DNA of 64,000 nucleotides from an uncultured Candidatus Saccharibacteria bacterium (lineage in GTDB: Bacteria; Patescibacteriota; Minisyncoccia; Phycocordibacterales; UBA12445). Shown piece after piece: positions 1-56,249 of the stretch; within the stretch, counting starts at the first letter, position 1; each line of letters begins with the position of its first letter. Under the pieces are notes generated by a model that saw only the letters and a list, made by a program, of their open reading frames with translations, did no database searches and had not been told where the DNA came from. Position numbers and translations under genes: made by a program. Location: positions 147 to 64,146 of the forward strand of contig CAZHDO010000004.1 in NCBI GenBank assembly GCA_964531375.1. Direction: 5' to 3'.

Positions 1-121
1 TCGAAAGCCAGAGCACGGTTTTCCCATTCCTTCCTCTACGGGGAAAAATACTTTTCCCTGACTCCTTTTTGTGCGAATCCCCTCCTAAAAGATAAAAATC
101 GCCGTTGTTGGCGATTTTTGT

Positions 122-169
122 AATTGTTGCGGAGACCGGATTCGCACCGGTGCCCCAAGGTTATGAGCC
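122..169. repeat. 48-bp direct repeat (distal att-like copy) duplicating the 3' portion of tRNA-Met at 25155..25202
   Basis: The string attgttgcggagaccggattcgcaccggtgccccaaggttatgagcc occurs at 122..169 and at 25155..25202. The second copy overlaps the T-arm and acceptor 3' half of a tRNA on the minus strand. Confidence 0.8.
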
Positions 170-376
170 AGCCTTTGTGGTTTCTAAAATATCCTTATAA
201 TTCCAAATTATTGTTGATATATAAGGTTAATTTTAGATATTTGGATTTATCAGAAATTATCAAATTTGTCATATATTCTCACTTTTTGGGCAACGGGAGG
301 GCAACGTTTTTTGCGCTCTCATCTGTATTATTATCCAAAGTAGGCATGGTAAGCGAGAATAAAAAATGGCGAGCTT

Positions 377-404
377 GGAATAAAAAGACCCCTTTTAAAA
401 GAGG
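377..404 (-). terminator. Rho-independent terminator-like hairpin (gacccc-ttttaaaagag-ggggtc, then T-run) downstream of the 460..969 operon; potentially bidirectional
   Basis: 6-bp GC stem followed by ttttt; an A-run precedes it on the plus strand, so it is T-flanked on both strands. Confidence 0.5.
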
Positions 405-459
405 GGGTCTTTTTGTGGGTAAATTCTTATTTTAACCCCCACTTAAAATCACTAGACAG

Positions 460-969
460 CTATTTGTAAATAGCTATTATTTGTCTAATTATTAGTTCTT
501 CTGGTTTAAGAAAATATCCAGTAAAATCAAACCAAACTTTCATAAAATCTTCTTTATCTATTTTTCTTTCGTGTCCAATTTCAGGATCTTGTAAATAAAT
601 ATTTTTATCATCAATTCCAAAGGCAACAGAATAATGACCATCTGCAACTTCTGAATCGTCATAATCACTTCTCCCTCTCGTAAACCAATCAACAATCACA
701 GGCACACCTTTTTTTAACCAGTTCTCAATATCTTTAAAATCACACTCGTTTTTAATTTCAGCTTTTAAACCGAAGAATTCTACCGCTTTTACGATCCCTT
801 TATCGTCAACACCAATCCCCTTAACCAAGCCTGCAATTTTGGCAATTTCTTTTTCTGTCTTGTCTATTCCGTAATAGTTTAAAACTATTTTTAAAGATGC
901 TGGGCCGCACATATCGGCGTGTAGTGTTTCTTGGAATGGTTTTACGTCTAACATTATTTTCTTTTTCAT
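460..969 (-). CDS. papain-fold cysteine peptidase-like protein (peptidase C39-like / BtrH_N-like)
   Basis: Putative catalytic Cys in HADMCGPASLKIVLNYYG and His in GHYSVAFGID, followed by an Asp-rich segment. 4-nt overlap (ATGA) with the upstream ATP-grasp gene. Confidence 0.55.
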   Translation of the reverse strand: MKKKIMLDVKPFQETLHADMCGPASLKIVLNYYGIDKTEKEIAKIAGLVKGIGVDDKGIVKAVEFFGLKAEIKNECDFKDIENWLKKGVPVIVDWFTRGRSDYDDSEVADGHYSVAFGIDDKNIYLQDPEIGHERKIDKEDFMKVWFDFTGYFLKPEELIIRQIIAIYK

Positions 970-2309
970 TTTTTTATATTATCCTGCTTAAAAATATGTG
1001 TCAATTTTTCATGAATATCTAACACTCTTTGTTTCGTTTTACCAAAAATAACACAAGAAAAAATACAATGATATGAATCAACCGCTACCAATACAACCCC
1101 CTCCTTTTTACCATTTATCGGAAAAAGTATTTGTTTAATTTTATTAAAGATATTTTCAGCTGATAGTATTTTTTCACCGTAGCAAAAAGAATCCGAAGAC
1201 AATGCTATTGTTTTACTAAACCAACGATCCCCAAATACGTGTCTAGTTAAATCATAAACATGAGTTCCACCTGTTCTTCTAACATTAGTCTCGATTGGAA
1301 ACGTTATCCCCTTTTTAGACATAATAAAATCTACATCCAAAAAACCTCGATAACCCAATTTAAAATAACGTTGACCAATCGCATTTCCAATTTTTCTTAT
1401 CTGTTTGTCTATGCTTGTTTTTACACAATTTTTGCCAATTACAATACCAAGAAAACATCCAAATTTATCAACAATCTGATTACATACATAAGTAATTTTA
1501 GAACATTTATCATCAATGAAAATCTCTAAAGACGGAGAGCTTTGGTCATTGTTAGATGAAGGAATAAACTCCTCAACAACAAAAGGATAAAAATTCCAAA
1601 TTGAATCGCTGTTTAATATTGACTTGATTTTACTTATCAACTCCTCTTCTGATGAATATTCGTCGCGGTGAACCATATAAACTCCCCAACCGCCCTCTCC
1701 TGAATATACTTTAATTATCGAGGATTTATTTTTTTTATACATCCAGACAACTGTATCTAAAACCTCTTTCTTGCCCCTACAGATAAAAAACTCTGGAACT
1801 GGTATAGATAAATCTTTCGTCTCGACTCTAAAACCCACCTTCGAACCGAGATAATCCACGAGCCACTGTGCGTTATTTAAAGGTTCCTGATCAACCTTAA
1901 ACAAAAGCTTTTGACCCCTTAATATATTAATTAATTTAGAAAAACTTTCAGTAAAACAATATGAAGAAATAATAATCTTTGGATTATCCCTGATAATACT
2001 AACAATCCTATCCATCAAACAACTATCGTTAATAATTGCATCCGATAAATTAATGTCCATATTCTCAGGAAACAAATTTACGATGTTTTCATACCCCAAA
2101 GACTTTGCATATAAAATAATAGATTTATCTACAGGAAAAGGTGTTATAACAATCTTATTGTCCCCTTCCCAAAACAAAAACCTACTAGACAAAAAATGCT
2201 CTTTGCGAATCTTAGATATTCTTTGAGCCTTGTCTTCGATACTGTTTATTATTGAGGAAAATGCTTCAGTATCATTGGCAATTATTATATTTTTAATTCT
2301 ATTTTTCAT
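966..2309 (-). CDS. ATP-grasp superfamily ligase (divergent)
   Basis: Central VVEEFIP motif and C-terminal RGFLDVDFIM...PIETNVRRTGGTH Mg/ATP-binding-like motif. Translationally coupled to the 460..969 gene. Confidence 0.5.
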   Translation of the reverse strand: MKNRIKNIIIANDTEAFSSIINSIEDKAQRISKIRKEHFLSSRFLFWEGDNKIVITPFPVDKSIILYAKSLGYENIVNLFPENMDINLSDAIINDSCLMDRIVSIIRDNPKIIISSYCFTESFSKLINILRGQKLLFKVDQEPLNNAQWLVDYLGSKVGFRVETKDLSIPVPEFFICRGKKEVLDTVVWMYKKNKSSIIKVYSGEGGWGVYMVHRDEYSSEEELISKIKSILNSDSIWNFYPFVVEEFIPSSNNDQSSPSLEIFIDDKCSKITYVCNQIVDKFGCFLGIVIGKNCVKTSIDKQIRKIGNAIGQRYFKLGYRGFLDVDFIMSKKGITFPIETNVRRTGGTHVYDLTRHVFGDRWFSKTIALSSDSFCYGEKILSAENIFNKIKQILFPINGKKEGVVLVAVDSYHCIFSCVIFGKTKQRVLDIHEKLTHIFKQDNIKK

Positions 2310-2389
2310 ACGTATTATAAGTTATAAAAAAGAGGTGGCTAAGCTTTCGATCAGTCCACCTCTCTCTTTTTTATCACAAAAAATAAACA

Positions 2390-3391
2390 CTAAAGACCAT
2401 AACGCTTTTGAGCAATTAACAAAATTTGTTCAACAAGATATTCAAATGAATATCCGAGGAAACTAGCCATCATGGTAAGAGTATTATTCAAACCATGTGA
2501 ATTAGGACCAATGCCTGGGTTACAATTTGTCTCTAAAAGAAATATTTTTCCATCATCCGACAACCTGTAATCCATCCTCGCATAATCACAGCAGTCAGTC
2601 ATTAAAAATGCGATACGAGTATATTCTTGAAAAAGACGTACTAACTCGTCTGACAAAATCGCTTTTTCCATACCCTCTTTACCACCGCCCCACTTATACT
2701 CATACGAACGTATCCTCTGATAAGGCGGAATGTTTTCACCAAAAACAAACTCAAGAGGTGGAAAAATTTTAATATCTGACCGATTACCGATACAACCAAC
2801 AGAAATTTCTCTTCCCTGGATAAATTCTTCAACCAATACAGGTTGACGATACAACTGCGCGACATACTTAACCCTTTTTGAAAGCTCCTCTATACCCGAA
2901 ACAACACTGTCATAGGTTATGCCAATACTTGCATCTTCATACATCGGCTTAACAATAAGAGGAAACCTCAAATCAACAGCAACAACGTCTTGCTCAGGGT
3001 AAAATACCTGTCGCCTTGGAGTTGGAACGCCATATGTACTCAAAATTAAATTCATTTTCCCCTTATCGCGGGTAAAAATGAAGTTACGAAGAGAAGCACC
3101 TGTAAAGGGAATTTCCAGTGTTTCTAGAATCGCGATATTAAACACCTCACTGGAATTTGACCCACCAAAACCCTCTGCAAGATTAAAAACAATATCAACT
3201 TTTCCTTTTATCGCAGACAGCTTATCAAACAAATCAGGGGTTGATTCCATTAATTCAGCAGAATGACCCTTACTCTGCAAAACGTCCCGAACCAAGGGGG
3301 CAATAATGGTTATCTCTTTTTCACAAATCAGATCTTCTTTATTACCCCTCTTTAATGTCGTAGAAAGATTATACAGCACGATAATGTTCAC
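2390..3391 (-). CDS. ATP-grasp ligase, D-Ala-D-Ala ligase-like
   Basis: LIVKPMYEDASIGI (Ddl-like ATP-binding strand), EEFIQGREISVG, LLETNCNPGIG (E-x-N catalytic loop). Confidence 0.6.
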   Translation of the reverse strand: MNIIVLYNLSTTLKRGNKEDLICEKEITIIAPLVRDVLQSKGHSAELMESTPDLFDKLSAIKGKVDIVFNLAEGFGGSNSSEVFNIAILETLEIPFTGASLRNFIFTRDKGKMNLILSTYGVPTPRRQVFYPEQDVVAVDLRFPLIVKPMYEDASIGITYDSVVSGIEELSKRVKYVAQLYRQPVLVEEFIQGREISVGCIGNRSDIKIFPPLEFVFGENIPPYQRIRSYEYKWGGGKEGMEKAILSDELVRLFQEYTRIAFLMTDCCDYARMDYRLSDDGKIFLLETNCNPGIGPNSHGLNNTLTMMASFLGYSFEYLVEQILLIAQKRYGL

Positions 3392-3523
3392 TGGTTGTTT
3401 CTCCTTTAAAATGTTGGCTTAATTAAACAAAATTACGAAATTGCTCAATTTACGAAGAACTTAACCTCCTAAACATCAATCTATTCGAAACAAGTACCTT
3501 AGTCAAATCAAAATTAATTATTT

Positions 3524-5836
3524 TTACTTAGAATATAATCCCCTCTGCAAAGCATAAAAATTAGTCTGAATAGCTTCTACACCACCCAGCATTTGTTCTG
3601 CGTCTGAGATGGCGTGATATTTAAGGTTAAGTAATATTGGTAGTTGTTCCATACCGAGCTCATCAACACCTTTCTCCTCATACTTATCAAGAACGAAGTT
3701 TAGAAACTCCTTTTGTTTGTCGTCCAAGTCATCCAAGATAGCCACCCTGTTTGAAGCAACTCTATCTTTTCTAGAAATTGGCTGTGTAGCGAACTGAACA
3801 TAAGCAAGAACATCAAAGATATCGCTATCTTCGGCGCCTATTAATTTCTGAAGAACTTCTAACTCATCTCTACCATAACCGAGACCTGCTATCTTCTCCA
3901 AAAAGATCTTCCTAGTTTTTGGATCTGACCAGACCTTTCGCAACTCCTCTTCGTTCCTAAAGAAGTCGGGCATAATGCCAAACATATTCTGCATAAATTC
4001 TTCGACAGAAATCGGTCTTCCGTCTGCGCTCCAAAAAGAAGTGGCTATCATGTGCTGGATCTCTCTCTCCTTTCCATCTCGTAATTTTATTTTTAATTTC
4101 TTCACTGGTTCTTCTAATCCTTCCTGCACTTCGGATGATACTGGTGGATATTCGACGGCGGGTTTCTCTGCTTTTGGTTTTAGTGGATCTTCTGTTATAT
4201 CTGCTATAGGCTCCCCATCCCATTCAGGATCAGCAAAGTGATGATATGCGTCCACAAAATCTATAATAGTGAAATACTCTTTTCCTTCAAATAACCTTGT
4301 CCCCCTTCCGATAATCTGTTTGAACTCAATCATAGAATTAACCGGGCGCATTAAAACAATGTTCCTAATATTTCTTGCATCTACTCCGGTAGAAAGTTTC
4401 TGGGAAGTGGTCAGTATTGTTGGTATTGTTTTTTCGCTATCCTGAAACTCCTTCAAAAATTGTTCACCTCTTGTCCCATCATTTGCTGTAACACGGACAC
4501 AATAAAAAGGATCCTTACTCGTCTTATTTTGGTTTACAAGATCCCGGACAGCAGCGGCGTGCTCTTGCGTAGCACAAAAGACGAGAGTCTTCTCCTTTTG
4601 GTTTATCTCTTGAAGCATGAGCTTAACCCTCTTTTCCTCGCGTGCCTTTATTTCAATAATTCTATTAAAGTCTTCTTCTTTGTAAATTTTACCCTCTTCA
4701 ACTTCGCCCTCTATGATCTGGTCATCGGAAGTATAAACATACTCATCAAGTGTGGTCTGTATTCTTTTAACCCTAAACGGAGTTAAAAAACCATCATTAA
4801 TTCCTTCTTTTAGGGAATAAGTGTAAACAGGTTCTCCAAAATATTTATATGTGTCAACATTGTCTTTTCTTTTTGGTGTAGCAGTCATACCAATCTGAAC
4901 AGCCGGAGAAAAGTATTCTAAAATTGCCCTCCAGTTTGATTCATCATTTGCACCACCTCTATGGCACTCATCCACAAAAATTATATCAAAAAAGTCTTTT
5001 GGGTATTCACCATAGTATGGCGTATTATTCGGCCCACTCATAAATGTCTGAAATATAGTAAAGAAAACACTTCCATTTGTAGGAACACTACCCTTTTTTC
5101 TAATGTCCAATGGATTTATACGAACTAGAGCATCTTCTGGAAACACCGAGAAACCATTAAAGGCTTGATTTGCTAAAATATTTCTATCAGCCAAGAAAAG
5201 AATCCTAGGCCTTCTCACACAGTCCCGCTGTAAACTCCACCTTGTCTGAAAAAGTTTCCATGCAATTTGAAAAGTTATATCTGTTTTGCCTGTACCAGTG
5301 GCGAGTGTGAGAAGTATGCGCTGTTTATTTTCTGCGATAGCTTCTAGTGCTTTATTAACAGCAAGCTCTTTGTAATATCTAACACCAGAATCCCCAAACC
5401 TATTCTCAATAGTAATATCATTAAACTTCTCTCTCCATTCGTTTTGATCTGTATGAGTTCTATTCCAAAGTTCTTCGGGTGTGGGAAATTTGTCCACGTA
5501 TTCTTCATCACCCGTTTTCATATTTATCTGGTAAATTTCTTTACCATTAGTTGCGTAAGTATATTCTATTCTTAATTTTTGGGCATAAACTTTGGCTTGT
5601 GTGACTCCTTCTGTTGAGGGGTCATCTAATTTCTTAGCCTCAATTACAGCCAACTTTTCTTTTTTGTAAGACAAAATATAATCAGCTATCTCTGGCTTAC
5701 CACGGCCTCCACCCATTTGGATCTTTCCATCTGTAATACGAAACTCACGGTAGACTTTTGAGTCTTCAACAACACCCCATCCGCTTTCCTTAAGCTTTGG
5801 ATCTACATATTCAGCTCTTGTTTCTGATTCATTCAT
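3524..5836 (-). CDS. hsdR: type I restriction enzyme R subunit (HsdR)
   Basis: N-terminal HSDR_N-like segment, Walker A LATGTGKT, DEAH-box FVDECHR, helicase C-terminal motifs. Same strand as hsdM and hsdS. Confidence 0.85.
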   Translation of the reverse strand: MNESETRAEYVDPKLKESGWGVVEDSKVYREFRITDGKIQMGGGRGKPEIADYILSYKKEKLAVIEAKKLDDPSTEGVTQAKVYAQKLRIEYTYATNGKEIYQINMKTGDEEYVDKFPTPEELWNRTHTDQNEWREKFNDITIENRFGDSGVRYYKELAVNKALEAIAENKQRILLTLATGTGKTDITFQIAWKLFQTRWSLQRDCVRRPRILFLADRNILANQAFNGFSVFPEDALVRINPLDIRKKGSVPTNGSVFFTIFQTFMSGPNNTPYYGEYPKDFFDIIFVDECHRGGANDESNWRAILEYFSPAVQIGMTATPKRKDNVDTYKYFGEPVYTYSLKEGINDGFLTPFRVKRIQTTLDEYVYTSDDQIIEGEVEEGKIYKEEDFNRIIEIKAREEKRVKLMLQEINQKEKTLVFCATQEHAAAVRDLVNQNKTSKDPFYCVRVTANDGTRGEQFLKEFQDSEKTIPTILTTSQKLSTGVDARNIRNIVLMRPVNSMIEFKQIIGRGTRLFEGKEYFTIIDFVDAYHHFADPEWDGEPIADITEDPLKPKAEKPAVEYPPVSSEVQEGLEEPVKKLKIKLRDGKEREIQHMIATSFWSADGRPISVEEFMQNMFGIMPDFFRNEEELRKVWSDPKTRKIFLEKIAGLGYGRDELEVLQKLIGAEDSDIFDVLAYVQFATQPISRKDRVASNRVAILDDLDDKQKEFLNFVLDKYEEKGVDELGMEQLPILLNLKYHAISDAEQMLGGVEAIQTNFYALQRGLYSK

Positions 5837-5872
5837 AGATTTATTTTATTGTATTTGTTTTAAGAAATATTT

Positions 5873-6415
5873 TTATTTCTTTTGTAATGAATTTGGTATC
5901 TGCTCAAGAATATTCAATAATAGACCAACTGCATTTTCTACACGTTTTAAATCACAGCTTTTGTCCCTTGGTTTACTAAAATGGAAAGTATTTCTAACGT
6001 CATTAATCTCTAAAATCTCTTCCGCCAATTTTTCTTGAATAAGTTTCTTATCTCTAAAAAATACTATAAGTTCTTTTAAACCAATTTGATGTTCCTTCTT
6101 TTCAGCTATTTCTTGAACAGCAATCACTACTGGAAAATCCAATTTTTCTTTATGCCTGTATCCTGGCAACAATTGACTTGGATATTTATATTCAAAATAT
6201 TCAATTTTCTCACCGCGTTCTTTAAAAAAATACAAAAGCACAGCTTCTATTATAGAGATAACATATAAAATTATTACCCTATACACCTCCTCTTGGTATA
6301 GCTTATTTTGTTCATTTTCTTTAGCCTGTTTTGTGTAAAGTACAAAAATAAACTCCATAGAGTCTTCTAAGATTTTACGAAGTCCGTCGTCTTTAATAAA
6401 CTCAAGGTCAGACAT
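5873..6415 (-). CDS. hypothetical protein embedded in the type I R-M operon (candidate Abi/HEPN-like accessory)
   Basis: ORF between hsdR and hsdS. Contains NDVRNTFHF (R-x3-H), which is one residue short of the HEPN R-x4-6-H motif. Confidence 0.4.
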   Translation of the reverse strand: MSDLEFIKDDGLRKILEDSMEFIFVLYTKQAKENEQNKLYQEEVYRVIILYVISIIEAVLLYFFKERGEKIEYFEYKYPSQLLPGYRHKEKLDFPVVIAVQEIAEKKEHQIGLKELIVFFRDKKLIQEKLAEEILEINDVRNTFHFSKPRDKSCDLKRVENAVGLLLNILEQIPNSLQKK

Positions 6416-6421
6416 ATTTTT

Positions 6422-6595
6422 TTAATCAGACTTCTTTTGAGTCATCTTCAATAACTTCGAAAGGGACGGCAGACCTTCCTTTTTTAAAACAGTATGAAGC
6501 TGGGTATCTGATCTATAGCCCAAATCAACACCATATTTTTTCTCTATAGTTTTAACTAAAGTATCTCCCCTCTTTTTAGATATTAGCTTACTCAT
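6422..6595 (-). CDS. small hypothetical protein (57 aa), Lys-rich
   Basis: Hand-translated ORF MSKLISKKRGDTLVKTIEKKYGVDLGYRSDTQLHTVLKKEGLPSLSKLLKMTQKKSD in the hsdS-hsdR gap; not in the provided track. Confidence 0.3.
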   Translation of the reverse strand: MSKLISKKRGDTLVKTIEKKYGVDLGYRSDTQLHTVLKKEGLPSLSKLLKMTQKKSD

Positions 6596-6614
6596 AAATC
6601 AAGTTTAACATATT

Positions 6615-7706
6615 TTAAATTTCACCGCCAAAAGCTTTTTTAAGGACAGATTTTTTGAGCTCATCTAGATCAGCAAGTTTTTTGCTGTAAATTTCTTCTA
6701 GTTTTTTGGTTTCAACAGAGAGATCTTCTAATTTTTTAACAATTTCCTTTTGTTCAGAAATAGATTTTGGAAAAATGATTTCAATTGTTTGAAGTTCAGA
6801 TTTCACAAGACTTGGTATAGTTGTTCCTCTATTCATACTTTTGAAATCAATACCTAAGCATAAATAATAGACAAACCTTTTATCGATATCATTTTCATTT
6901 TTTGGGTAAAAACCAAATGCTGTATCTACATTCCAAAAACGTTCATCAATATAAATTGGTTTACTGATATTTCCCTTTCTCCCGATAATTGTTGTCCCTG
7001 CTTCACAAATGAAATCAGTTGCATAACCCATTACATTTCCAGCACTACCCAAAATTTTGTATTCACCCTTTTCAGATAATACTGCTTGTTGATTTTTACC
7101 GTTCCTAATTTCAATCATTTCCCCCAACTCCCTTTCCTCCCAACTATCCCCCGGATTCGCAAAAATACTCTGTAAATAAGATTCAAAAAGTTCGTGGGAG
7201 TTTTTTATATTTTTCTCTGCGTTTTCTTTCGCCTTAGCTGTCTTCTCAAAAACTTCGTCTAGGATTTTCACGATTCGGTTTTGTTCTGGGAGAGGTGGAA
7301 GGGGGATTTCGAAATTCATCATCTCTTTCATGTTCGCTCGTGGCATCCTTGCCCCAGTGCAAGTATCATTTATTTTTTCCACTATCTCGCCAGAGGTTAT
7401 CCAGTAGAATAAGTATTTCTTATCCAAAGCATTATCAGTTTTTATAGGAAATATTTCAGTTGAGCAATGACCGTCAAAATTCGGCAATAAGACCTTGTTA
7501 AGATAAGGTCTAAGTCTTCCATATAGTAGATACTCTTTATTAAATTTAAAAGTCACACTTTTTACCTTACGTGGTTTTATTGAGCCTATAAATTTACCTG
7601 TATTAGACTCAATGTCTTCCATCCCAATATATGGCAAAGACTCACCGTTATTGGGAGATTTATCAAAACTAGAAACATCGCCAAGTTTTTTTATTTGCCA
7701 AATCAT
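6615..7706 (-). CDS. hsdS: type I restriction-modification specificity subunit (HsdS)
   Basis: Conserved central repeat motif LPPLPEQNRIVKILDEVF. Two target-recognition-domain architecture. Confidence 0.85.
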   Translation of the reverse strand: MIWQIKKLGDVSSFDKSPNNGESLPYIGMEDIESNTGKFIGSIKPRKVKSVTFKFNKEYLLYGRLRPYLNKVLLPNFDGHCSTEIFPIKTDNALDKKYLFYWITSGEIVEKINDTCTGARMPRANMKEMMNFEIPLPPLPEQNRIVKILDEVFEKTAKAKENAEKNIKNSHELFESYLQSIFANPGDSWEERELGEMIEIRNGKNQQAVLSEKGEYKILGSAGNVMGYATDFICEAGTTIIGRKGNISKPIYIDERFWNVDTAFGFYPKNENDIDKRFVYYLCLGIDFKSMNRGTTIPSLVKSELQTIEIIFPKSISEQKEIVKKLEDLSVETKKLEEIYSKKLADLDELKKSVLKKAFGGEI

Positions 7707-7710
7707 GATA

Positions 7711-8295
7711 TTAAAAGAATTTTTGAAGTAATGGGGATAAAACCTGCCAAACGGTTAAAGAATTTGCAGCGACCTCTACCATCTTGGAAATACCCTGCAT
7801 TAGATTTTTAACAACATTCTTTTTACGATTCTCTGGTTTTTGGAACAATTCTTTAGTAATAATATCCAGACTTTCAAGGATTTCATCTTGTTGGTCTTTT
7901 ATCAAGCAGGGTTCAGTCAAGATTTTTTCAGAAAAACTTTTTATATTATCTGCCAATTCTTTTTGGGATGAAGAATATAGGGAATCAATAGTCTGGTTTA
8001 AATTTTGAATATTACCAGAATTCAAAATACCAATTTGGCTATTACTTATGGCTATGTGGTTGTTGTTTATTGTTCCGCCAGAGACCAATACTGGTCGCTT
8101 TACTGGATATCTTGGACCCATACTTATCCCGAACATAGAATCAATACTATCCATGGAGTAGTTCATCTCTTCTCTTAACATCTGAATATTTTTTTCATTC
8201 ATCTCTCGTACTGTTGCGTAGCAGTTCAGACATAGTAGCACCTTTTGATCACCTATCTCATACATTGCGTTGTTACTGCATTGGTAACATTTCAT
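7711..8295 (-). CDS. hypothetical zinc-ribbon protein inserted between hsdM and hsdS
   Basis: N-terminal C4 ribbon CYQCSN...CLNCYA then a predicted helical region. 4-nt overlap with the hsdM stop and 5 nt from the hsdS start. Confidence 0.45.
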   Translation of the reverse strand: MKCYQCSNNAMYEIGDQKVLLCLNCYATVREMNEKNIQMLREEMNYSMDSIDSMFGISMGPRYPVKRPVLVSGGTINNNHIAISNSQIGILNSGNIQNLNQTIDSLYSSSQKELADNIKSFSEKILTEPCLIKDQQDEILESLDIITKELFQKPENRKKNVVKNLMQGISKMVEVAANSLTVWQVLSPLLQKFF

Positions 8296-9764
8296 AAATA
8301 TTTCTGAATATCCTTTAAAATTTTTCCACCCTCGAAGTCTAGTTCTTCTATCTCTTTCAAAATATCCTTCGGTTCTCTCAACACAGCTCCCCCTCCTTTC
8401 TTTGGATTCTTCACAGAAAGGTCAAAAGTTTCCTGGTTAATACCTTTCATATCCACACTCCAGGAGTTTTCTGAATCAGCTTTGGTCTTTTGCAGCTCAA
8501 CGAATTCCGCAAGATCCTTTTCATTAAGAGGATTGGTCTTTCCTAGGTTTCTATCAAGATTAAGCTGGTAATACCAGATCTTTTTCGTAGGAGATCCTTT
8601 TTCAAAAAACAAGACGACGGTCTTTACACCAGCGCCTTGAAATGTACCCCCGGGGAGATCAAGTATTGTGTGTAAGTTACAGGATTCAAGGAGAAGTTTC
8701 CTTAAAGAGACTGAGGCATTATCGGTGTTTGAAAGAAAGGTATTCTTAATAACAATACCAGCTCGTCCCCCTGCTTTGAGAATCTTTATAAAATGCTGTA
8801 AAAAGAGGAATGCAGTTTCTCCTGTCTTAATGGGGAAGTTTTGCTGAACTTCCGCTCTCTCCTTACCACCAAAAGGTGGGTTGGCCAGCGCGACAGAATA
8901 GCGGTCTTTCTCTTGAATGTCGGAGAGGTTTTCTGAGAGGGTATTTGTATGAATAATATGGGGAGCCTCTATGCCGTGGAGGATCATATTCATTATTCCA
9001 ATGATGTAGGCCAAGGACTTCTTCTCCTTTCCGTAGAAGGTACTCTTCTGAAGAGTCTCCATGTCTTTGGTAGAGAGGTTCTTATTCTCTTTCAAATAAT
9101 CAAATGCTTCTACCAAGAAGCCGGCAGAGCCCACGGCGCCATCATAGATCTTATCTCCAATCTTAGGGGCTACAACTTTGATTATGGTTTTTATAAGAGG
9201 GCGTGGCGTGTAATACTCCCCACCGTTTCTGCCAGCATTACCCATGTTCTTGATCTTCACCTCATAGAGATGAGAGAGTTCGTGTTTTTCGGCATGAGAG
9301 CGGAAGCGCATACCGTCTATGATATTTATTATCTCTCTTAGGGCGTATCCGCTTTGAATCCTGTTCTTTATCTCACTGAAAATTTCCCCGATCTTATATT
9401 CAATAGTGTCCGGACTCACTGCGTCGGTCTTAAACTTTTTTAGATATTGAAATAGACCGTTGTCTTTTGGGTCTAAGCGATTAACAAATTCCAATAGGTC
9501 GTCTCCTGTTAAGGCCTTGTTGTGGTCTAGTTTACCATCCTTGCCCTTTGGAGAGGCCCAAGTGTCCCAGTGATACTTAGGAGAGATAATATGCGTATAT
9601 TCCTTACCAGAAAGCTTAGCGGCTAAAGCCCTGTCCTTTTCGAGGTCATCCAAATATCTCAAGAATAAAACCCAGGAAGTTTGCTCAACATAATCAAGCT
9701 CACTGGAGGCACCAGCATCCTTATGGAGAATGTCGTCTATATTTTTGAATGATTGTTCGAACAT
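8292..9764 (-). CDS. hsdM: type I R-M N6-adenine DNA methyltransferase (HsdM)
   Basis: NPPFG catalytic motif (LANPPFGGKERAE); AdoMet-binding region DGAVGSAGFL; HsdM N-domain. Confidence 0.9.
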   Translation of the reverse strand: MFEQSFKNIDDILHKDAGASSELDYVEQTSWVLFLRYLDDLEKDRALAAKLSGKEYTHIISPKYHWDTWASPKGKDGKLDHNKALTGDDLLEFVNRLDPKDNGLFQYLKKFKTDAVSPDTIEYKIGEIFSEIKNRIQSGYALREIINIIDGMRFRSHAEKHELSHLYEVKIKNMGNAGRNGGEYYTPRPLIKTIIKVVAPKIGDKIYDGAVGSAGFLVEAFDYLKENKNLSTKDMETLQKSTFYGKEKKSLAYIIGIMNMILHGIEAPHIIHTNTLSENLSDIQEKDRYSVALANPPFGGKERAEVQQNFPIKTGETAFLFLQHFIKILKAGGRAGIVIKNTFLSNTDNASVSLRKLLLESCNLHTILDLPGGTFQGAGVKTVVLFFEKGSPTKKIWYYQLNLDRNLGKTNPLNEKDLAEFVELQKTKADSENSWSVDMKGINQETFDLSVKNPKKGGGAVLREPKDILKEIEELDFEGGKILKDIQKYL

Positions 9765-9824: not shown

Positions 9825-11924
9825 TTACTCACCTCCCCCTTGATTCTTTTCAAGCGCTTGTCTAACAAGACTTATGACATCTTCTATTTGTTCAGAAGAA
9901 GAAAGTTTAACCTGAACATCACCATTGCCCCATGTTCCAACACCTGTAACATCTCGACAAATACCCTTAGGATCATTAATCTCTGCGAAAGTTATGTTGA
10001 GCGATAAGGCGAGACACTGTCTCTGAGGAACAATATCTACAAAATTTGTCGTGGTCTTATAAGCAATGTAGCGACGCTTCACCTCCTCTCTAACAGAAGA
10101 GTCTAAATTTAAAATTTCTTTACGGATCTCATAAAACAAATCTAAAAGTGGACCTTGCAGATATTCACTATGTACTTCTAAATTATAAACACGTTCTCGC
10201 TTGTTTTCTTTCTTCTCCTTCTTGTATTTTTGTAGAACCTCAGTAGCCACATCAGGGAATGACCAAACATTTATTGCTACCTTTGTAATATTTTGAGCTC
10301 GCTTCTTGATCTCCTGTTCGTCCCAGTGATCCAATTCTGCGAGACTACGATTTAACATTATTGGGCTATTAGCAAAACCCCCCTTCATGTCTCTTTTCTC
10401 TAAGAATTTCTTATCACTCAATTCTGAATTGTATCCGGTAAGTGTGAGATTTCCGATCGTATGCAAATACTGATCCTGAATTAGCTTCCAATTATCACCC
10501 AATTCTTTTTGCCATGCTTCTGACAGATTCTCGTTCTGGGGTAAAATATGTTCTATTGTGTAACTCTCGACTGAAACTATTTCCTTTCTATCGTGATTTT
10601 CTAGTTTTCTTAATAGATAGTTCCTGTTTCGAAGATTGTAAATATCCTTAATAACAAACTCGCGACGGAACTCTTCGTTGTCTGGAAAACGCTGATATGA
10701 ATCCTTATTCAAAAGAGCGACCTTAACACTGTCTACATAATTCTGCTTATCTATTTCTCTCGAGAGTATGGCAAAGGTCTTATTGAGAGAGTTAGTGGGA
10801 ATACCACATATTGATCGGCGGAATACATAACTCTCGACCATCTTCAATATTTCTACAAAACCCTCTCGACTTAGCACATTAGAATAAAAATCATGATAGA
10901 CGGAAAGCAAAAAAGGATAAGAAACATCAACTTTTAGAGAATCGATATCGCCCAAAATATTATTTATTTCTTTATCCTCCTCTTTTAAGAAAGATAGCTT
11001 AATAAAATATTTCGAATACATAAAAATATCGGCAACAACCTCCTGAATTGTTTTCCTTCCGGTGTCTTTCTGTACATAATTCTTGAAGCTACCATAAACT
11101 TCTTTTATATTGGGAATAAGACCAGTCTTTAAAGTAAGATAATCGCGCATGAAATTATCAAACAGATCAGTGTATTCAGTATTCCCAAATCCCTGCTCCA
11201 TTGGATACCAATATTGACGGTAAAGATTATCTTGCTCCTCTTTCGGGAGAGACATCAAAACGAAGTTTCTTATAAGATCGGCTTGAGATAAGTCTAGACC
11301 AGTAGAATTAAGACTCTCAAAGATTAATTGTGGATTATCATGTTGGTGATCGAGCGAAATATCAACGATAAGAAGTTTCTGCAATCCTTGATAAATGGCT
11401 GTGGCAGAGATATTGGCTGTTTTAATCTTGTTCTCAAACCAGTTATAATTCTCGGCAATTCGGATGGAGCTTTTATCAAGTAGCCCTTTTCTTTCAATTA
11501 GACGGGTAAATGATTCTTTGTCTGTCTGAGTCAATAAAAGTTTATACCTATCTTCACCCTCTTCTTGTCCATTAAATAAATAATAATTTTCAATCTTAGT
11601 GGCTATGCTCTGGTGTTCCGGTATTTCCGACTCTCTTAATGTTTTAGAAAGAGCCGTAAGGAGTAATGAAATTGTAGTTAGGCGCTGTTGTCCGTCTATA
11701 ACCAAGAGCTGTGGCACACTCGCTACTTGATATAATCCCTTTTCAATATATACAATAGATCCAACAAAATGACCGCTCACGGTTGGTTCTTGAACTCTTA
11801 AGATATCTTTCCATAACTGTTCACACTGTTTAATGGTCCAGCTATATGGTCGCTGGTATATAGGTATAACGAACTGTGTCGGTTTTTGAAGAAATTTAAG
11901 TAAGTTTGTTTCTACTGCTTTCAT
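9825..11924 (-). CDS. DUF262/DUF1524 (GmrSD-like) nuclease, putative type IV restriction or defence protein
   Basis: N-terminal DUF262 signature IPIYQRPYSW and DGQQRLTT; C-terminal His-Me/HNH-like SYTIEHILPQN. Confidence 0.7.
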   Translation of the reverse strand: MKAVETNLLKFLQKPTQFVIPIYQRPYSWTIKQCEQLWKDILRVQEPTVSGHFVGSIVYIEKGLYQVASVPQLLVIDGQQRLTTISLLLTALSKTLRESEIPEHQSIATKIENYYLFNGQEEGEDRYKLLLTQTDKESFTRLIERKGLLDKSSIRIAENYNWFENKIKTANISATAIYQGLQKLLIVDISLDHQHDNPQLIFESLNSTGLDLSQADLIRNFVLMSLPKEEQDNLYRQYWYPMEQGFGNTEYTDLFDNFMRDYLTLKTGLIPNIKEVYGSFKNYVQKDTGRKTIQEVVADIFMYSKYFIKLSFLKEEDKEINNILGDIDSLKVDVSYPFLLSVYHDFYSNVLSREGFVEILKMVESYVFRRSICGIPTNSLNKTFAILSREIDKQNYVDSVKVALLNKDSYQRFPDNEEFRREFVIKDIYNLRNRNYLLRKLENHDRKEIVSVESYTIEHILPQNENLSEAWQKELGDNWKLIQDQYLHTIGNLTLTGYNSELSDKKFLEKRDMKGGFANSPIMLNRSLAELDHWDEQEIKKRAQNITKVAINVWSFPDVATEVLQKYKKEKKENKRERVYNLEVHSEYLQGPLLDLFYEIRKEILNLDSSVREEVKRRYIAYKTTTNFVDIVPQRQCLALSLNITFAEINDPKGICRDVTGVGTWGNGDVQVKLSSSEQIEDVISLVRQALEKNQGGGE

Positions 11925-13913: not shown

Positions 13914-14690
13914 TTATCTTGTAAATAACTTATTAATCTTCTCTAATTTTGCAATCAAATCGCCAAGGGTTGCCTGAATTATTTCTTCTGTGAATATGAC
14001 ATTACCCCTTGGAGTTGCTATTGGTTCTCCATTTGCAATTTTATTCATTAATACTTCATTTGCCCTTATCCTTACATCAGCTTTATCCTCCGGAAGCAAT
14101 CTCAAAATAGTTTTATTTTCACAATCTAATCTTTCTGGACTTTTATACACCTGACCCATACGCAATGAATACAGGGCATCTTGATAAAACAATCTATTAC
14201 ATTCCTGTGTAAATACTCCGACATCTCTGGTCAACACAAGATCTTCTTCGCACAATCTTCCATGTCGATCCATAATAGACCAAAACTCATTATAGACGGC
14301 ATCAGACGTTGGAATACTGGCATCGCCCTGCAGAACAGATACCATTATTTCTTTCATACGAGTTTCTTCTGCAATGGTGAATTTCACCTCGCCTGAATGA
14401 ATACAAGAACCGCCAGAAACAGATGAAACTGAAGATTTGGTAGTCTCTATTTTTGTTTCAACAACAGGGATACTATTAAAATCTTCAACCGCCTGTACAG
14501 GAAGGTCTGAATATCTTAAATCAATATTATTATTGTTTGTCGATGAATCATCTTGGGCCGATGGCTGAACTAAAGTACTCGAATTATTTGAATTAGTATC
14601 TTGATTAAAAATCATAAATACTCCCAACACAGAAAGAATAATTATAAATAAAACAATACCAGACGTATCTTGTGTTTTTTTGTTTTTCAT
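13914..14690 (-). CDS. membrane-anchored hypothetical protein
   Basis: N-terminal TM helix (IVLFIIILSVLGVFMIF) followed by an S/N-rich linker. Confidence 0.4.
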   Translation of the reverse strand: MKNKKTQDTSGIVLFIIILSVLGVFMIFNQDTNSNNSSTLVQPSAQDDSSTNNNNIDLRYSDLPVQAVEDFNSIPVVETKIETTKSSVSSVSGGSCIHSGEVKFTIAEETRMKEIMVSVLQGDASIPTSDAVYNEFWSIMDRHGRLCEEDLVLTRDVGVFTQECNRLFYQDALYSLRMGQVYKSPERLDCENKTILRLLPEDKADVRIRANEVLMNKIANGEPIATPRGNVIFTEEIIQATLGDLIAKLEKINKLFTR

Positions 14691-14710
14691 AATGTTTTAT
14701 CTTAATCAGA

Positions 14711-15865
14711 CTACTTATTAGGAAAACAATTTTTGCAAGCGCCCTGTGCCTGACCCACTGGGACAAAAGAACAACTTGAGACCGATTGAAATTGAGTACA
14801 ATCTATATAAGGAGTTGCCGTAATAGGCGTTTGTTTCATTGCCGCAACTTTAGCGATGAGGTCAGCCAGAATTGCCTGAAGCTTAATCAAAAGTTCCTTC
14901 ATTTGTTGTGCTGTCATGGTGTTAAGATTAGGAATTTCAACTGGTGTAATAATTATTGGGTCCTGAGAAATACACTTTTTAATTATAATAGGGTTATCAT
15001 TGACACAACCAGGTGGCTGAGAAGATATTATTATCCTTGTTTGTTGATTATTTATACACGAACTCCAATTAGAATAGGTCCATGAAGTACACGCTGGGGG
15101 GACATAAGTGCAAGATTGAGTTGTAACAGGATTACCCTCAACACAACCAGATGGCTGTGAAGATATAATTGTTCTTGTCTGAATTCCATTTGCGCATTGG
15201 CCCCAGTTTGAGTATGTCCAAGAGCTACAACAAGAAACCATTTCATCTTTTAAAATTTCACGATAGTGAGCAATTGTTTCTCTGAGATTCTCTATCTCGG
15301 AGTTTAAGGTAGTTCGATTATATTCTTGATATAAATTATTTTTATAATTAGTAACTTCATCTATTTTTTTGATATAAGATTCCAATAAGGCATCATTGCC
15401 AAACTCATTTCTACAATTAAACAAAAAAGATCCACCAACGGTTAAATAACTAGAAAGACCTCCCTCTTTTTTAAAATTAAAATCTCCCCTAATTGATTTT
15501 AGACAATTAATGTATTTAATTAATTTAGATTGAATATCCATATTACTTTCTAAAAGAAACTCATTGTTTTTGGCTTTAATCAAGTTGTCAATTTCTGCTA
15601 CTAAATAACCATATCTCTCAATTAATTTATTATTAAAATTCTTAAAATTTGTTTCGACTAGCGCTATTTTACTTGCTAATTCTGCTTCCTTTTCTTTTAA
15701 TATCGTTGGGTATTTACAGTAGGTGGTTGGAACATAAATACTTACAAAACCCTGAGGACCAAAGAATGCAACTGCCAATGCGGTTTGGTAAAATCCAAAA
15801 TATCCAAGCATTACAAAAAACATACCTGCCAGGAAAAACATATTCTTTTTGATTTTATTTTTCAT
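14711..15865 (-). CDS. secreted/membrane-anchored protein with coiled-coil region and two thrombospondin type-1-like (W-x-x-W-x-x-C) Cys repeats
   Basis: Tandem ~38-aa repeats CSSWTYSNWGQCANGIQTRTIISSQPSGCV and CTSWTYSNWSSCINNQQTRIIISSQPPGCV, also visible as a diverged ~114-bp nucleotide repeat at about 14960..15240. Confidence 0.5.
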   Translation of the reverse strand: MKNKIKKNMFFLAGMFFVMLGYFGFYQTALAVAFFGPQGFVSIYVPTTYCKYPTILKEKEAELASKIALVETNFKNFNNKLIERYGYLVAEIDNLIKAKNNEFLLESNMDIQSKLIKYINCLKSIRGDFNFKKEGGLSSYLTVGGSFLFNCRNEFGNDALLESYIKKIDEVTNYKNNLYQEYNRTTLNSEIENLRETIAHYREILKDEMVSCCSSWTYSNWGQCANGIQTRTIISSQPSGCVEGNPVTTQSCTYVPPACTSWTYSNWSSCINNQQTRIIISSQPPGCVNDNPIIIKKCISQDPIIITPVEIPNLNTMTAQQMKELLIKLQAILADLIAKVAAMKQTPITATPYIDCTQFQSVSSCSFVPVGQAQGACKNCFPNK

Positions 15866-15873
15866 ATTTTAAA

Positions 15874-17148
15874 TTATATTCCAAACCAAGATCTAAGGCG
15901 AAACCACCAGATATTCTTATTTACAACCGACTTTGATGGCCTATTGGTAGACGTGGCAAATTCATCAGTAGAGGTCACCCCTACTGATATTAAAGGGTTG
16001 AGCTTAAGAGTATCTTTAATTATTTCTTTTGGTGATACTTTAAGTTGGGTCTCAATTTTTTGGATTGGCATTTCTGGAGTTTCAGTCTTTTTTTCAACCT
16101 TAGGAGTCTCTGTGGAGGCTTTGTTGTTAATTTCATTTTGTTTATCAATCCTATTCTGTAGGTCTTGAATTTGATTCATAAGAACAGAGATTTGAGCTGC
16201 GACATCATTTTTCTTTTGTGTTGGTTGTATGGGCTGTACTTGTAAAGGTTGTATTTGTGGAGATTCTATCTGCGGGGGTGTTATCTGCATTGAACTTGTC
16301 AGAGGGTTAGTGGTTTTAGTTTTTAGCCCCCCTGATCTTTGCGCAGAAAGACTCTTTAGCTGAGGAATTGGGCTCTTGATTGTCCTTATAAACGAGGACA
16401 TCATTGATGGTGGGTCAAAAGAATTAAACCAATACTCTAGATTTTCTTTCGGGGATACAATTTCTGGGCGACCAAAAGGTTTGCCATAATACACAATATC
16501 ACCTTCGCTTAATTTTAATGATTTAATCTTTTGATTGTAATTAATTTTTTGAATTCTAACAGAATCAGAGTCACTTTGGTTTGTAAGAGGAAATAAAAAA
16601 TCATCGCTATTATAAATTGTCCATGCCCAACTATCTACATATTTTCCAATCAAATTTTCACACCAACCAAAATCCTCATACAGGGTGTTCTTCACAGAAA
16701 CCAAGGAGGTTCTATCTCCGCTTAATACCTGTTTGGTGCCCCACCCTGAAACATTCTTTGCAGAAAAACAAAGGGTTTTTAAATTTTCTACTGTAGGATT
16801 TTGAAGAAAAGCATCAATAATATTCAGCGAGCCAATCTCAATTTTAACCATATCAACAAACTCACTCTGTGGAATGTTTTCGTCAATGATTAAGGTTGCT
16901 GGTTTGAGTAGTGAGGCATTTCGTGAATTAGAGTCAAAAATAATTTCTTTTTCATCAGCTTTAGAGGTAGAAAAAAGGTCATTAACAGTATCTACCGCGT
17001 TAGACCACAACCCTGCGTGTACGGAAGAGGGGCATTGTAAAAATAAAAGGGTCGTAATGATAAGAAATGATAATTTATTTAGTTTGTTTTTCATATTTTT
17101 TATTCTTCCAAACAAAAAGCCCACCACATGAGTTAGTGACAAAGTCAC
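15874..17148 (-). CDS. secreted hypothetical protein with P/Q-rich linker
   Basis: Signal-peptide-like N-terminus; PQIESPQIQPLQVQPIQPTQ low-complexity linker. Confidence 0.4.
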   Translation of the reverse strand: MTLSLTHVVGFLFGRIKNMKNKLNKLSFLIITTLLFLQCPSSVHAGLWSNAVDTVNDLFSTSKADEKEIIFDSNSRNASLLKPATLIIDENIPQSEFVDMVKIEIGSLNIIDAFLQNPTVENLKTLCFSAKNVSGWGTKQVLSGDRTSLVSVKNTLYEDFGWCENLIGKYVDSWAWTIYNSDDFLFPLTNQSDSDSVRIQKINYNQKIKSLKLSEGDIVYYGKPFGRPEIVSPKENLEYWFNSFDPPSMMSSFIRTIKSPIPQLKSLSAQRSGGLKTKTTNPLTSSMQITPPQIESPQIQPLQVQPIQPTQKKNDVAAQISVLMNQIQDLQNRIDKQNEINNKASTETPKVEKKTETPEMPIQKIETQLKVSPKEIIKDTLKLNPLISVGVTSTDEFATSTNRPSKSVVNKNIWWFRLRSWFGI

Positions 17149-17369
17149 TCATACAAGTTTCCCTGTACGGCAGAACATGCAACCCCATATGATGGGTTCT
17201 TTATGCATGTTCTGACTCTTTTCACCATGCCTGACACTGTGCCAAGTTTAGGCTACTTATTATTAAATTGTCTGCCTCTCTAAAATACCACAAAAACAAG
17301 AAAATATCCAAAAAAATAAACAGTAACCCTGATATTGGATTACTGTTTATTTTTTCAATTTATTATATT

Positions 17370-17609
17370 TTATTCCTCAAGAGAGCGAATGTACGCTTCT
17401 GCTTCACTGCGAGTTAGGTCCTCAATATGATTCAAACATTGCTGGGTTGTAGAAATGTCGTCAAAATGCGAAAAAATCAAATCATGCAACCTCCTTCTCT
17501 GGCCTGGTGTAATAGTTTCCTCTTCATCAAATGGACGTTCAGAAAAATCACCGAAGTTAGCAGAATATTCCCTCGGATGATTATAGTCAGTTATAAAATT
17601 GTTTAACAT
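17370..17609 (-). CDS. hypothetical small acidic protein
   Basis: ORF only. Confidence 0.3.
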   Translation of the reverse strand: MLNNFITDYNHPREYSANFGDFSERPFDEEETITPGQRRRLHDLIFSHFDDISTTQQCLNHIEDLTRSEAEAYIRSLEE

Positions 17610-17659
17610 TGTTATAAATTTAAGTTATTAAAAAGACCAGCGAGTTGCTGGCCATGTAT

Positions 17660-18361
17660 CTATCTCAAACCAATAAAACTGGAGATTTGTTCTGAGGCTT
17701 GCTCACGGGTCATCTCTTCTAATTCAGCGAGCCAATTTTTTTTCTCATCATCCCCATGGACTCTTCGTTTTACCAATGATGTTAATAATTCCTTTTGACG
17801 TGCAGTGATCATCTTAGATTCTTTTGAAGGTTTTTCTTCTGTAACAGTGGGGAGAATTGGGAGATCTTCTAAGTCTTGGGTAAAAATTTCAGAAAGATTT
17901 GTGGATCTAATAACCCCATCTATAAATGCTGATTTTAACGACATCTTAATGGTCTTATTTGGATCATTGTCGTTCTTTGCAAGTGTACTAGCTCCTCGTC
18001 CCTGGCCCATGACACTATTACCGCGGTATAGATTGCATACATAGGCAATGAGACCAGGGACACTCTTAAATGCTTCCATTGTCTCATTATCGCGAGAGAA
18101 AGTAGCTGTCAGTGAATAAATACTGGCAAGTTTTTCTGCGCCACCCTTGGCCAGCGACTTTTTGCCTTTGATTACATAATAATCATGGTTCTCTTTGAGT
18201 GTTGGCAAAACTTGGGAAATAAAATAGCTTTTGCGGAGTAGCATGTCGTCTACCCCCTGCCTGAAGCTTTGCATGGCGGTGGTATCTCCCAAGCGGATAG
18301 CACCCTTCTCGATTGTTTGTACGTTGTTCATTGTTTTTAAATTATCTTCTAGTAATAACAA
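17660..18361 (-). CDS. hypothetical protein (island cargo; TTG start in the track, an internal ATG 10 codons in is likelier)
   Basis: ORF only; no motif recognised. Confidence 0.35.
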   Translation of the reverse strand: MLLLEDNLKTMNNVQTIEKGAIRLGDTTAMQSFRQGVDDMLLRKSYFISQVLPTLKENHDYYVIKGKKSLAKGGAEKLASIYSLTATFSRDNETMEAFKSVPGLIAYVCNLYRGNSVMGQGRGASTLAKNDNDPNKTIKMSLKSAFIDGVIRSTNLSEIFTQDLEDLPILPTVTEEKPSKESKMITARQKELLTSLVKRRVHGDDEKKNWLAELEEMTREQASEQISSFIGLR

Positions 18362-23775: not shown

Positions 23776-23994
23776 ATGGATGTATCGAGGGACAATACAG
23801 AAAGACTGCTGAATAGAAATGAGGTAATGAAAATGCTCAACATATCAAAAGCTGGATTTTATAGACTAGTCTATAAAAGAGAGATCCCCTTCTATAAAGT
23901 TGGCGGTGGCTTGAGATTTTCTGTGGAGGATATTCTTTCTTATCTGAAAAACAATAGAGTTCCCTCGATACATGAATATAAAAAACAAATATGA
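23776..23994 (+). CDS. excisionase/HTH_17-family DNA-binding protein
   Basis: LNISKAGFYRLVYKREIPFYKVGGGLRFSVEDILSYL is a typical helix-turn-helix excisionase domain. 4-nt overlap with the integrase start. Confidence 0.55.
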   Translation: MDVSRDNTERLLNRNEVMKMLNISKAGFYRLVYKREIPFYKVGGGLRFSVEDILSYLKNNRVPSIHEYKKQI

Positions 23995-25154: not shown

Positions 25155-25202
25155 AATTGTTGCGGAGACCGGATTCGCACCGGTGCCCCAAGGTTATGAG
25201 CC
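25155..25202. repeat. 48-bp direct repeat (att core within tRNA-Met), partner of 122..169
   Basis: Identical to 122..169. Confidence 0.8.
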
Positions 25203-56176: not shown

Positions 56177-56249
56177 AGATGATTTAGACAATATACAATA
56201 TATTAAAAAATAATTCTAGAAAAAACGAGGGTAAATAATTTAGTAAAAT

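Follow-up and report, generated by a model that had tools for sequence, protein, structure and literature searches.

Near the start of the window, by which we mean the whole 64,000-nt stretch analysed here from an uncultured Candidatus Saccharibacteria bacterium (contig CAZHDO010000004.1), lie three co-directional genes that recur together, mostly in candidate phyla radiation (CPR) bacteria. In transcriptional order, they encode a 333-aa ATP-grasp ligase resembling D-alanine--D-alanine ligase (Ddl-like), a second ATP-grasp ligase of 447 aa (AG447) and a stand-alone C39-type cysteine peptidase of 169 aa (C39; Table 1). The Ddl-like open reading frame (ORF) starts with GTG, and an AAGGAG Shine-Dalgarno sequence is located 8 nt upstream. 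It is separated from AG447 by 80 nt (2310-2389), and AG447 and C39 share a 4-nt ATGA overlap (969-966). The restriction gene hsdR (3524-5836) is directly upstream of the trio, 132 nt from the Ddl-like gene. The original prediction, which was made from the DNA letters and a list of ORFs, described a papain-fold protein with a C39-like Cys/His pair and two divergent ATP-grasp ligases at the tip of a mobile island next to hsdR. The three ORFs, the overlap, the 80-nt gap and the quoted motifs were all recovered, the domain calls hold, and a 48-bp repeat was found just beyond the trio. The genes and their overlap were therefore placed correctly, but the direction was reversed, as the two genes named first are the last two to be transcribed. 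Two features had been overlooked: the trio is usually part of a cluster of 5-7 genes, and a conserved terminator lies between the Ddl-like gene and the other two.

This terminator is a hairpin with a U-run, of the intrinsic-terminator or attenuator type. It folds at -23.7 kcal/mol (z = -4.3), and none of 200 shuffled sequences folded as well. Reading by eye, we found a hairpin with a T-rich tract behind it in approximately 14 of 19 other trio loci, at the equivalent position and with unrelated sequences. Under a strict definition (a run of at least five T within 60 nt of the Ddl-like stop codon), 12 of 20 collinear loci qualified. Because the terminator after the Ddl-like gene is positionally conserved, the cluster appears to comprise two units, with the Ddl-like gene and the amino acid supply genes described below on one side of the terminator or attenuator and AG447-C39 on the other. 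Additionally, a promoter-like TAGCCA-16-TATAAT sequence is present at 2341-2314 (minus strand), with the TATAAT-like hexamer approximately 5 nt before the AG447 ATG. In the window and at the equivalent position in three other loci (L007, L011 and L014), this ATG lies only 10-25 nt past the U-run and lacks a Shine-Dalgarno sequence. The AG447 transcript could lack a leader, or ribosomes could re-initiate following read-through. An Rfam search of positions 1-3600 returned only a sub-threshold Thr_leader match.

Table 1. Features of the trio and of the island that carries it (window coordinates).
Feature	Position	Strand	Basis or remark
Ddl-like ATP-grasp ligase, 333 aa	2390-3391	minus	ORF, Pfam match
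AG447, 447-aa ATP-grasp ligase, predicted member of the PGM1/BesA peptide-ligase clade	966-2309	minus	ORF, profile, fold
Stand-alone C39-type cysteine peptidase, 169 aa	460-969	minus	ORF; ATGA overlap couples it to AG447
Hairpin and U-run, intrinsic-terminator/attenuator type	2326-2368	minus	Directly after the Ddl-like stop codon; GC-rich
Terminator-like hairpin, bidirectional	389-407		After the C39 gene
48-bp direct repeat of the tRNA-Met 3' part	122-169	minus	Distal att-type boundary; blastn 48/48 vs 25155-25202
Tyrosine integrase	23991-25133	plus	Phage_integrase 1.5e-31, Phage_int_SAM_3; proximal island end
tRNA-Met	25159-25230	minus	Adjoins the integrase
Island, ~25-kb integrative element	~170-25154		Bounded by the 48-bp repeat
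Prim-Pol	21128-21544		Island
AAA_25/DnaB-like helicase	21547-23208		Island
GmrSD	9825-11924		Island
Type I restriction-modification (R-M) genes	3524-9764		Island
Several ORFs without a Pfam match	13914-18361		Island

Relatives of AG447 were detected in 184 species genomes, nearly all of them CPR/Patescibacteria, and the AG447-C39 pair was found at 43 distinct loci, which with few exceptions come from CPR bacteria. We clustered the ORFs of the fetched loci and counted the neighbours in the 23 of the 43 loci that are well flanked. A Ddl-like gene was present in 20 of these. In line with the original prediction, the trio is a recurrent module and not a set of ordinary Ddl or RimK housekeeping genes. 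It recurs across CPR genomes, but R-M genes accompany it only here.

The other recurrent neighbours encode enzymes that make diamino or beta-amino acids. Specifically, the 23 well-flanked loci contain genes for a radical-SAM protein (KamA; 12 loci), a PALP-family protein (SbnA; 12), an OCD-family protein (SbnB; 12) and a class-III aminotransferase (Dat; 10). At least one of these supply genes was found in 15 loci and all four in 6, and 8 loci, including the window, have none. Full seven-gene clusters (kamA, sbnA, sbnB, ddl-like, AG447, C39 and dat) are present at, for example, L014, L016 and L174. Against the NCBIfam models, SbnA, which functions in L-2,3-diaminopropionate synthesis, scored 386 bits (cut-off 350), and SbnB fell just below its threshold (323 bits, cut-off 327). 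The Dat family, diaminobutyrate--2-oxoglutarate transaminase, was matched at 457 bits (cut-off 402). Five proteins matched the KamA (2,3-aminomutase) family at 188-249 bits (cut-off 199; three pass and two are just below), an assignment at the level of the family that does not separate the Lys, Glu and Arg types. A tblastn search for SbnA, SbnB, KamA and Dat found no supply gene in the 64-kb window.

The three core genes also keep a nearly constant arrangement. In approximately 39 of 45 close AG447 relatives, a C39 gene lies immediately downstream, and above approximately 33% identity, the order Ddl-like, AG447, C39 is almost always kept. AG447 and C39 often overlap by 4 nt or lie at most 16 nt apart. 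In the few loci where the order is permuted, the three genes are still found together, and at four loci with a changed gene order (L012, L017, L052 and L058), the pair remained together. The median identity to the window copy over 25 loci was 64% for C39, 54% for the Ddl-like protein and 40% for AG447, and divergence co-varies among them, suggesting that the three core proteins are co-inherited. Some relatives carry non-CPR labels: a metagenome-assembled genome labelled Aminicenantes (L024) has the Ddl-like and AG447 genes but no C39 gene, a contig labelled Victivallales (L013) has an AG447 relative, and Sulfitobacter aquimarinus (L037) has a solitary AG447 copy with 28% identity. Horizontal transfer or mis-binning may account for these cases.

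The Ddl-like protein resembles Ddl over most of its length and matches Pfam Dala_Dala_lig_C (84 bits, cut-off 24; 1e-23). However, it falls below the cut-offs of both NCBIfam Ddl models (PRK01372, 117 bits against 243; TIGR01205, 110 bits against 245.65). We aligned 30 Ddl-like orthologues to E. coli DdlB, and the result agreed with a separate alignment to the Ddl in the PDB. Residues K97, K144, E180, E187, K215, R255, D257, E270 and N272 were kept in 29-30 of the 30 orthologues, and E15 was retained. The fold and the catalytic and ATP/Mg residues are common to the Ddl/Van ligases and this family, which public annotation calls Ddl. In contrast, the D-Ala pocket was changed (H63 to E, S150 to A, Y216 to W and S281 to G in 26-29 of the 30), and an insertion of approximately 11 residues takes the place of the GGxS part of the N-terminal motif. 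Because the catalytic residues are kept and the pocket residues are changed, we predict a catalytically competent ligase whose substrate pocket differs from the D-Ala-D-Ala type. The name given in public records, 'D-alanine--D-alanine ligase', is probably wrong for this family. Its gene context also differs from that of the Ddl/Van ligases, being tied to AG447 and not to cell-division or Mur genes, and searches begun from the Ddl-like protein return to the same cluster.

Searches with hidden Markov models, which had been proposed for all three proteins, placed C39 and the Ddl-like protein above the Pfam thresholds but not AG447, which had no Pfam match above threshold (PreAtp-grasp, 12.7 bits against 27.5). 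AG447 also scored below every curated family cut-off tested (for example, LdmS, 27 against 475; BesA, 20 against 750). A profile of 40 AG447 homologues matched PDB entry 8ynd, an 'ATP-grasp peptide ligase from Streptomyces' (2.9e-17, full length), the pheganomycin peptide ligase PGM1 (2.8e-13) and the L-propargylglycine--L-glutamate ligase BesA (1.6e-11), and the matches cover the full length or most of AG447. Foldseek searches with an AlphaFold 2 model (pLDDT 93) ranked the same three first (TM-scores of 0.80 for PGM1, 0.76 for 8ynd and 0.74 for BesA), whereas other ATP-grasp enzymes reached at most 0.59. The resemblance extends over the whole fold, with the N-terminal pre-ATP-grasp domain included, and the catalytic residues are kept: K157, K200, E246, D327, the ExN motif E340-x-N342 and RRTGGTH are invariant. 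Judged by profile and modelled fold, AG447 is a member of the PGM1/BesA peptide-ligase clade with predicted ligation activity. Its nearest structures belong to enzymes that ligate an amino acid carboxylate to an amino acid or a peptide N-terminus. However, the sequence identity to PGM1, 8ynd and BesA is only 14-16%, and the partners differ, since AG447 is accompanied by the Ddl-like ligase, C39, SbnA/SbnB, KamA and Dat, and no precursor peptide gene was found with it.

An exhaustive profile search of 1.84 billion representatives placed 365 clusters (50% identity) in the AG447 family at E <= 1e-30; the family is real but small. In addition, solitary AG447 paralogues with 27-30% identity occupy lineage-conserved positions in Gottesmanbacteria (L049, L054, L066-L069, L071, L078 and L088) and Collierbacteria (L055, L070, L076, L079, L083, L085 and L086), without C39 or Ddl-like genes. 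They adjoin a gene for a 784-aa ATPase resembling type IV secretion system (T4SS) coupling proteins or for RNase J, and they form a second, uncharacterised subfamily. Their surroundings (T4SS coupling-protein-like, NUDIX, TsaD, RNase J and FtsK genes) were considered as a functional clue and proved uninformative.

The C39 protein passes the thresholds of both Peptidase_C39_2 (PF13529; 54.5 bits against 24) and Peptidase_C39 (PF03412; 48.8 against 22). In an alignment of 31 homologues, Q13, C21, H112 and D128 are invariant, corresponding to the oxyanion Gln and the Cys/His/Asp triad, so that the Cys/His pair read from the sequence alone stands. The spacing of approximately 16 residues from His to Asp is that of the ComA peptidase domain. 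The protein consists of the catalytic domain only, and no signal peptide, membrane segment or anchor, or wall-binding repeat is visible in its sequence. Because a signal peptide is not visible, C39 is probably cytoplasmic. It stands alone and is not the N-terminal domain of an ABC exporter, unlike the double-glycine C39 exporters; no ABC transporter was fused to the C39 gene or recurred immediately beside it in the loci examined.

By three methods, the best solved relative of C39 is the pseudomurein endoisopeptidase PeiR, followed by double-glycine C39 domains. The sequence profile gave 1e-11 for PeiR against 3e-6 for ComA, although the margin is small, with double-glycine proteases scoring nearly as high. 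Weaker structural matches to the C39 model included CtaG and phytochelatin synthase. The enzymes PeiR, PeiW and PeiP are of the C39 type and cleave the epsilon-Ala-Lys bond, and their catalytic domain is the closest homology of the window protein. PeiR is reported to cleave Glu-gamma-Ala/Thr isopeptide analogues and not double-glycine peptides (PMC13642728). Unlike these enzymes, the window C39 lacks pseudomurein-binding (PMBR) repeats, is bacterial and probably cytoplasmic, and is not virus-encoded; no relatives were found in viral contigs.

C39 is much more widespread than the ligases. We found 2484 homologues, of which the best 120 have 67-77% identity and 164-182 aa. AG447 lies upstream in only approximately 20 of 83 C39-anchored loci; in the others, the neighbours are NUDIX, CYTH, GNAT and S66 LD-carboxypeptidase genes. 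The S66 gene was found in 8 C39-anchored loci, usually within one or two genes of C39. Thus, the ligases are nearly always accompanied by C39, whereas C39 usually occurs without the ligases, at least locally. Copies with and without AG447 are interspersed in the tree and equally similar (67/68/67% identity), with no separate clades. The homologues at L091-L172 (for example, L091:7001-7504 and L092:7001-7507), with 63-77% identity across many CPR lineages, are usually without ligases.

Taken with a probability of roughly one half (0.5), the trio forms the centre of a gene cluster, conserved and found mostly in CPR bacteria, that assembles a small amide or isopeptide compound from diamino and beta-amino acids, independently of the ribosome and of nonribosomal peptide synthetases (NRPS), and that is carried here as island cargo. 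The domain identities, the kept catalytic residues, the synteny and the two-unit operon structure are shown by the data above, whereas we infer which substrates are used, how the steps follow one another and what the peptidase does, as follows. SbnA/SbnB, where present, would supply L-2,3-diaminopropionate, the Dat/EctB-type transaminase would supply L-2,4-diaminobutyrate, and the KamA-family radical-SAM aminomutase would supply a beta-amino acid. The Ddl-like ligase would make the first amide bond by activating a carboxylate to an acyl phosphate, which the amine of a diamino acid would attack. AG447 would form a second bond, by which the product is either lengthened or joined to an amine acceptor. 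The co-translated C39 would trim, release or hydrolyse the product, giving a synthetase/amidase pair. The nearest characterised relative of C39 cleaves a Glu-gamma-Ala-epsilon-Lys isopeptide. On the best reading, the product would be a cationic (iso)peptide with C39 as its processing or hydrolytic partner. Among the functions suggested earlier was a small peptide-ligation system, and the supply genes for diamino and beta-amino acids in the neighbourhoods favour it.

Several points weigh against this assembly pathway. Two ligases cannot serve three to four building blocks unless they are iterative or promiscuous. As 8 of the 23 well-flanked loci have no supply gene within approximately 7-10 kb, diamino acids may not be obligatory substrates. 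Moreover, with C39 far commoner than the ligases and most C39-anchored loci lacking an adjacent AG447, the primary role of C39 may lie outside the pathway. It is mainly this asymmetry that keeps the probability at one half.

The proposed pathway can be compared with several known systems. In pyrrolysine biosynthesis, PylB is a radical-SAM lysine mutase, and PylC is a Ddl-like ATP-grasp enzyme that makes an epsilon-isopeptide. As with PylB/PylC, a radical-SAM mutase is encoded beside an ATP-grasp ligase able to join a rearranged amino acid to a side-chain amine, and PylC is among the weaker structural matches of AG447. The clusters described here differ in having a mutase of the KamA type (2,3-aminomutase) instead of PylB, no PylD, and an extra ligase and a peptidase. 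In dapdiamide and staphyloferrin biosynthesis, the SbnA/SbnB pair occurs beside amide-forming ligases, as it does in related trio loci. However, the trio loci lack genes for NRPS-independent siderophore (NIS) synthetases and fumaramoyl chemistry, and SbnA/SbnB are absent from the window. Graspetide and other clusters for RiPPs (peptides made on the ribosome and modified after translation) differ as well, as the trio loci have no shared precursor ORF and their ligases are of the Ddl and PGM1 types and not of the RimK-like MdnB/MdnC type. In the glutathionylspermidine and trypanothione synthetase-amidases and in closthioamide CtaD/CtaG, an ATP-grasp synthetase has a papain-fold partner that acts on the same amide (PMC2427367, PMC7183216, PMC12865890). 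Here, the two activities would reside on separate proteins, the small protein is of the C39 type and not of the CHAP or BtrH type, and the loci inspected show no carrier proteins and no thiotemplate. The BtrH/BtrJ chemistry of butirosin, which the original prediction had cited, is a weak analogy. BtrH_N had no match in the window C39 protein, and in two homologues it gave a weak match or was just listed. Gene tables made for six loci contain no carrier protein, nor is there one among the recurrent families of the other loci, and the best relatives of C39 are PeiR and double-glycine C39 domains.

The relationship of C39 to PeiR suggests a role at the cell wall, which we consider rather unlikely. 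In this case, the cluster would serve tailoring or salvage, with C39 as a PeiR-like muropeptide endoisopeptidase and the ligases adding or rebuilding a diamino acid residue or cross-bridge on peptidoglycan precursors, and SbnA/SbnB and Dat would let auxotrophic cells make for themselves the diamino acid used in cross-links. Among ATP-grasp enzymes, side-chain ligases acting on peptidoglycan are known, for example, D-aspartate ligase. Consistent with such a role, PeiR is the top-ranking solved structure, one of the ligases is Ddl-like, and the S66 LD-carboxypeptidase gene that accompanies C39 is also near the trio in L173. In addition, a penicillin-binding protein (PBP) gene is upstream of the cluster in L008, and the wide and highly conserved distribution of C39 in CPR bacteria fits a housekeeping envelope role. 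Conversely, C39 has none of the visible export, anchoring or wall-binding features, and among the genes called in the six tabulated loci there is no Mur ligase, MraY or dcw-cluster gene. The Ddl-like ligase has an altered D-Ala pocket, and the cluster is patchily distributed and island-borne here. A bolder proposal, which we hold to be doubtful, is that the PeiR-like C39 is the matching hydrolase for a diamino acid isopeptide at the CPR envelope or host interface, made by a dedicated pathway of 5-7 genes that would both produce the building blocks (Dap, Dab and a beta-amino acid) and join them with two ligases. If true, this would be a bacterial counterpart of pseudomurein isopeptide chemistry.

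The abundance of C39 without ligases raises the possibility that it is functionally independent, that is, a conserved CPR housekeeping peptidase, and that the pathway consists of the two ligases and the supply genes only. The ligases are lacking in about three quarters of the C39-anchored loci, linked and unlinked copies do not separate in identity or in the tree, and C39 is more conserved than either ligase. Viewed from the ligase side, however, the association is nearly obligate, the junction is tight, and the pair was kept through changes of gene order and the move onto the island. We therefore regard an independent C39 as improbable.

No more probable is a pheganomycin-like hybrid, in which C39 would remove the leader from a ribosomal precursor encoded elsewhere and AG447 would then add a cap to the freed N-terminus, either a non-proteinogenic amino acid or a dipeptide produced by the Ddl-like ligase. 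PGM1 and the Streptomyces 'peptide ligase' are the structures nearest to AG447, leader removal is the canonical C39 activity with double-glycine proteases scoring almost as high as PeiR, and AG447 and C39 are translationally coupled. The frequent occurrence of C39 without ligases would also be expected if it served several precursors. To look for a precursor, all intergenic ORFs of 20-100 aa within 1.5 kb of the clusters were grouped into families, and no small ORF family was common to any two trio loci within that distance. The gaps between the clustered genes leave no room for a precursor gene, a fused or constantly adjacent ABC transporter is lacking, and the C39 profile favours PeiR over ComA. 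Furthermore, CPR graspetide loci have different partners (PMC8939145).

An undescribed anti-phage or conflict module, in which the three enzymes would alter or deplete some component of the cell or the phage upon infection, had also been suggested and is highly improbable: the single context in its favour is the location of this copy on an integrative island beside type I R-M and GmrSD genes, whereas the three proteins had no PADLOC match (E <= 0.01), viral contigs scanned with two of the protein profiles contained no relatives, such defence neighbours occur at 1 of the 43 loci (in this genome only), the recurrent partners are biosynthetic, no integrase was found near the trio in the other genomes examined, and the cluster adjoins housekeeping genes in several genomes (a tRNA Thr-Tyr-Thr-Trp cluster in L019, L077 and L173, and also the L33 ribosomal-protein gene in L173).

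The assembly of a small amide or isopeptide compound would be of interest in these organisms. CPR bacteria have minimal biosynthetic capacity, and most amino acid biosynthesis is absent from them. Despite this, many of them retain this small set of genes for non-proteinogenic diamino acids and, with it, two ligases. In public records, the three core families are unannotated or mis-annotated, appearing as 'D-alanine--D-alanine ligase', 'hypothetical protein' or 'double-glycine peptidase'. Identifying the product would bring to light a new peptide or isopeptide made without NRPS, correct the Ddl annotation and give a function to a 168-aa C39 protein with 65-77% identity across much of the CPR. 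The components come from known superfamilies and the chemistry is of a known type, but the gene combination is apparently undescribed. We found no description of it in the searchable literature; the amidoligase survey of 2009 (Iyer et al.) may list a related operon.

In the window, the trio is cargo of a mobile element, since it is located just inside the distal repeat of an integrative element of approximately 25 kb (Table 1). It was acquired at the distal tip without the supply genes, and the island copy shows horizontal movement of the module from one CPR genome to another. We also considered whether the R-M block is an insertion that split a larger cluster. This was rejected, as the ORFs upstream of the block encode only an S49 peptidase, a tetratricopeptide repeat (TPR) protein and unknowns according to Pfam, and no supply genes. 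Within the R-M operon, three ORFs are interleaved with hsdR, hsdS and hsdM (5873-6415, 6422-6595 and 7711-8295, minus strand). Two of them, of 180 and 194 aa, have no Pfam match, and the third has 57 aa.

Outside the island, ARAGORN called a normal tRNA-Ser(GCT) at 57365-57453 and, 1.2 kb from it, a tRNA-Ser with the anticodon ACT (A34) at 56089-56177 (minus strand; loop TTACTAA). An A34 serine tRNA is unusual for bacteria.

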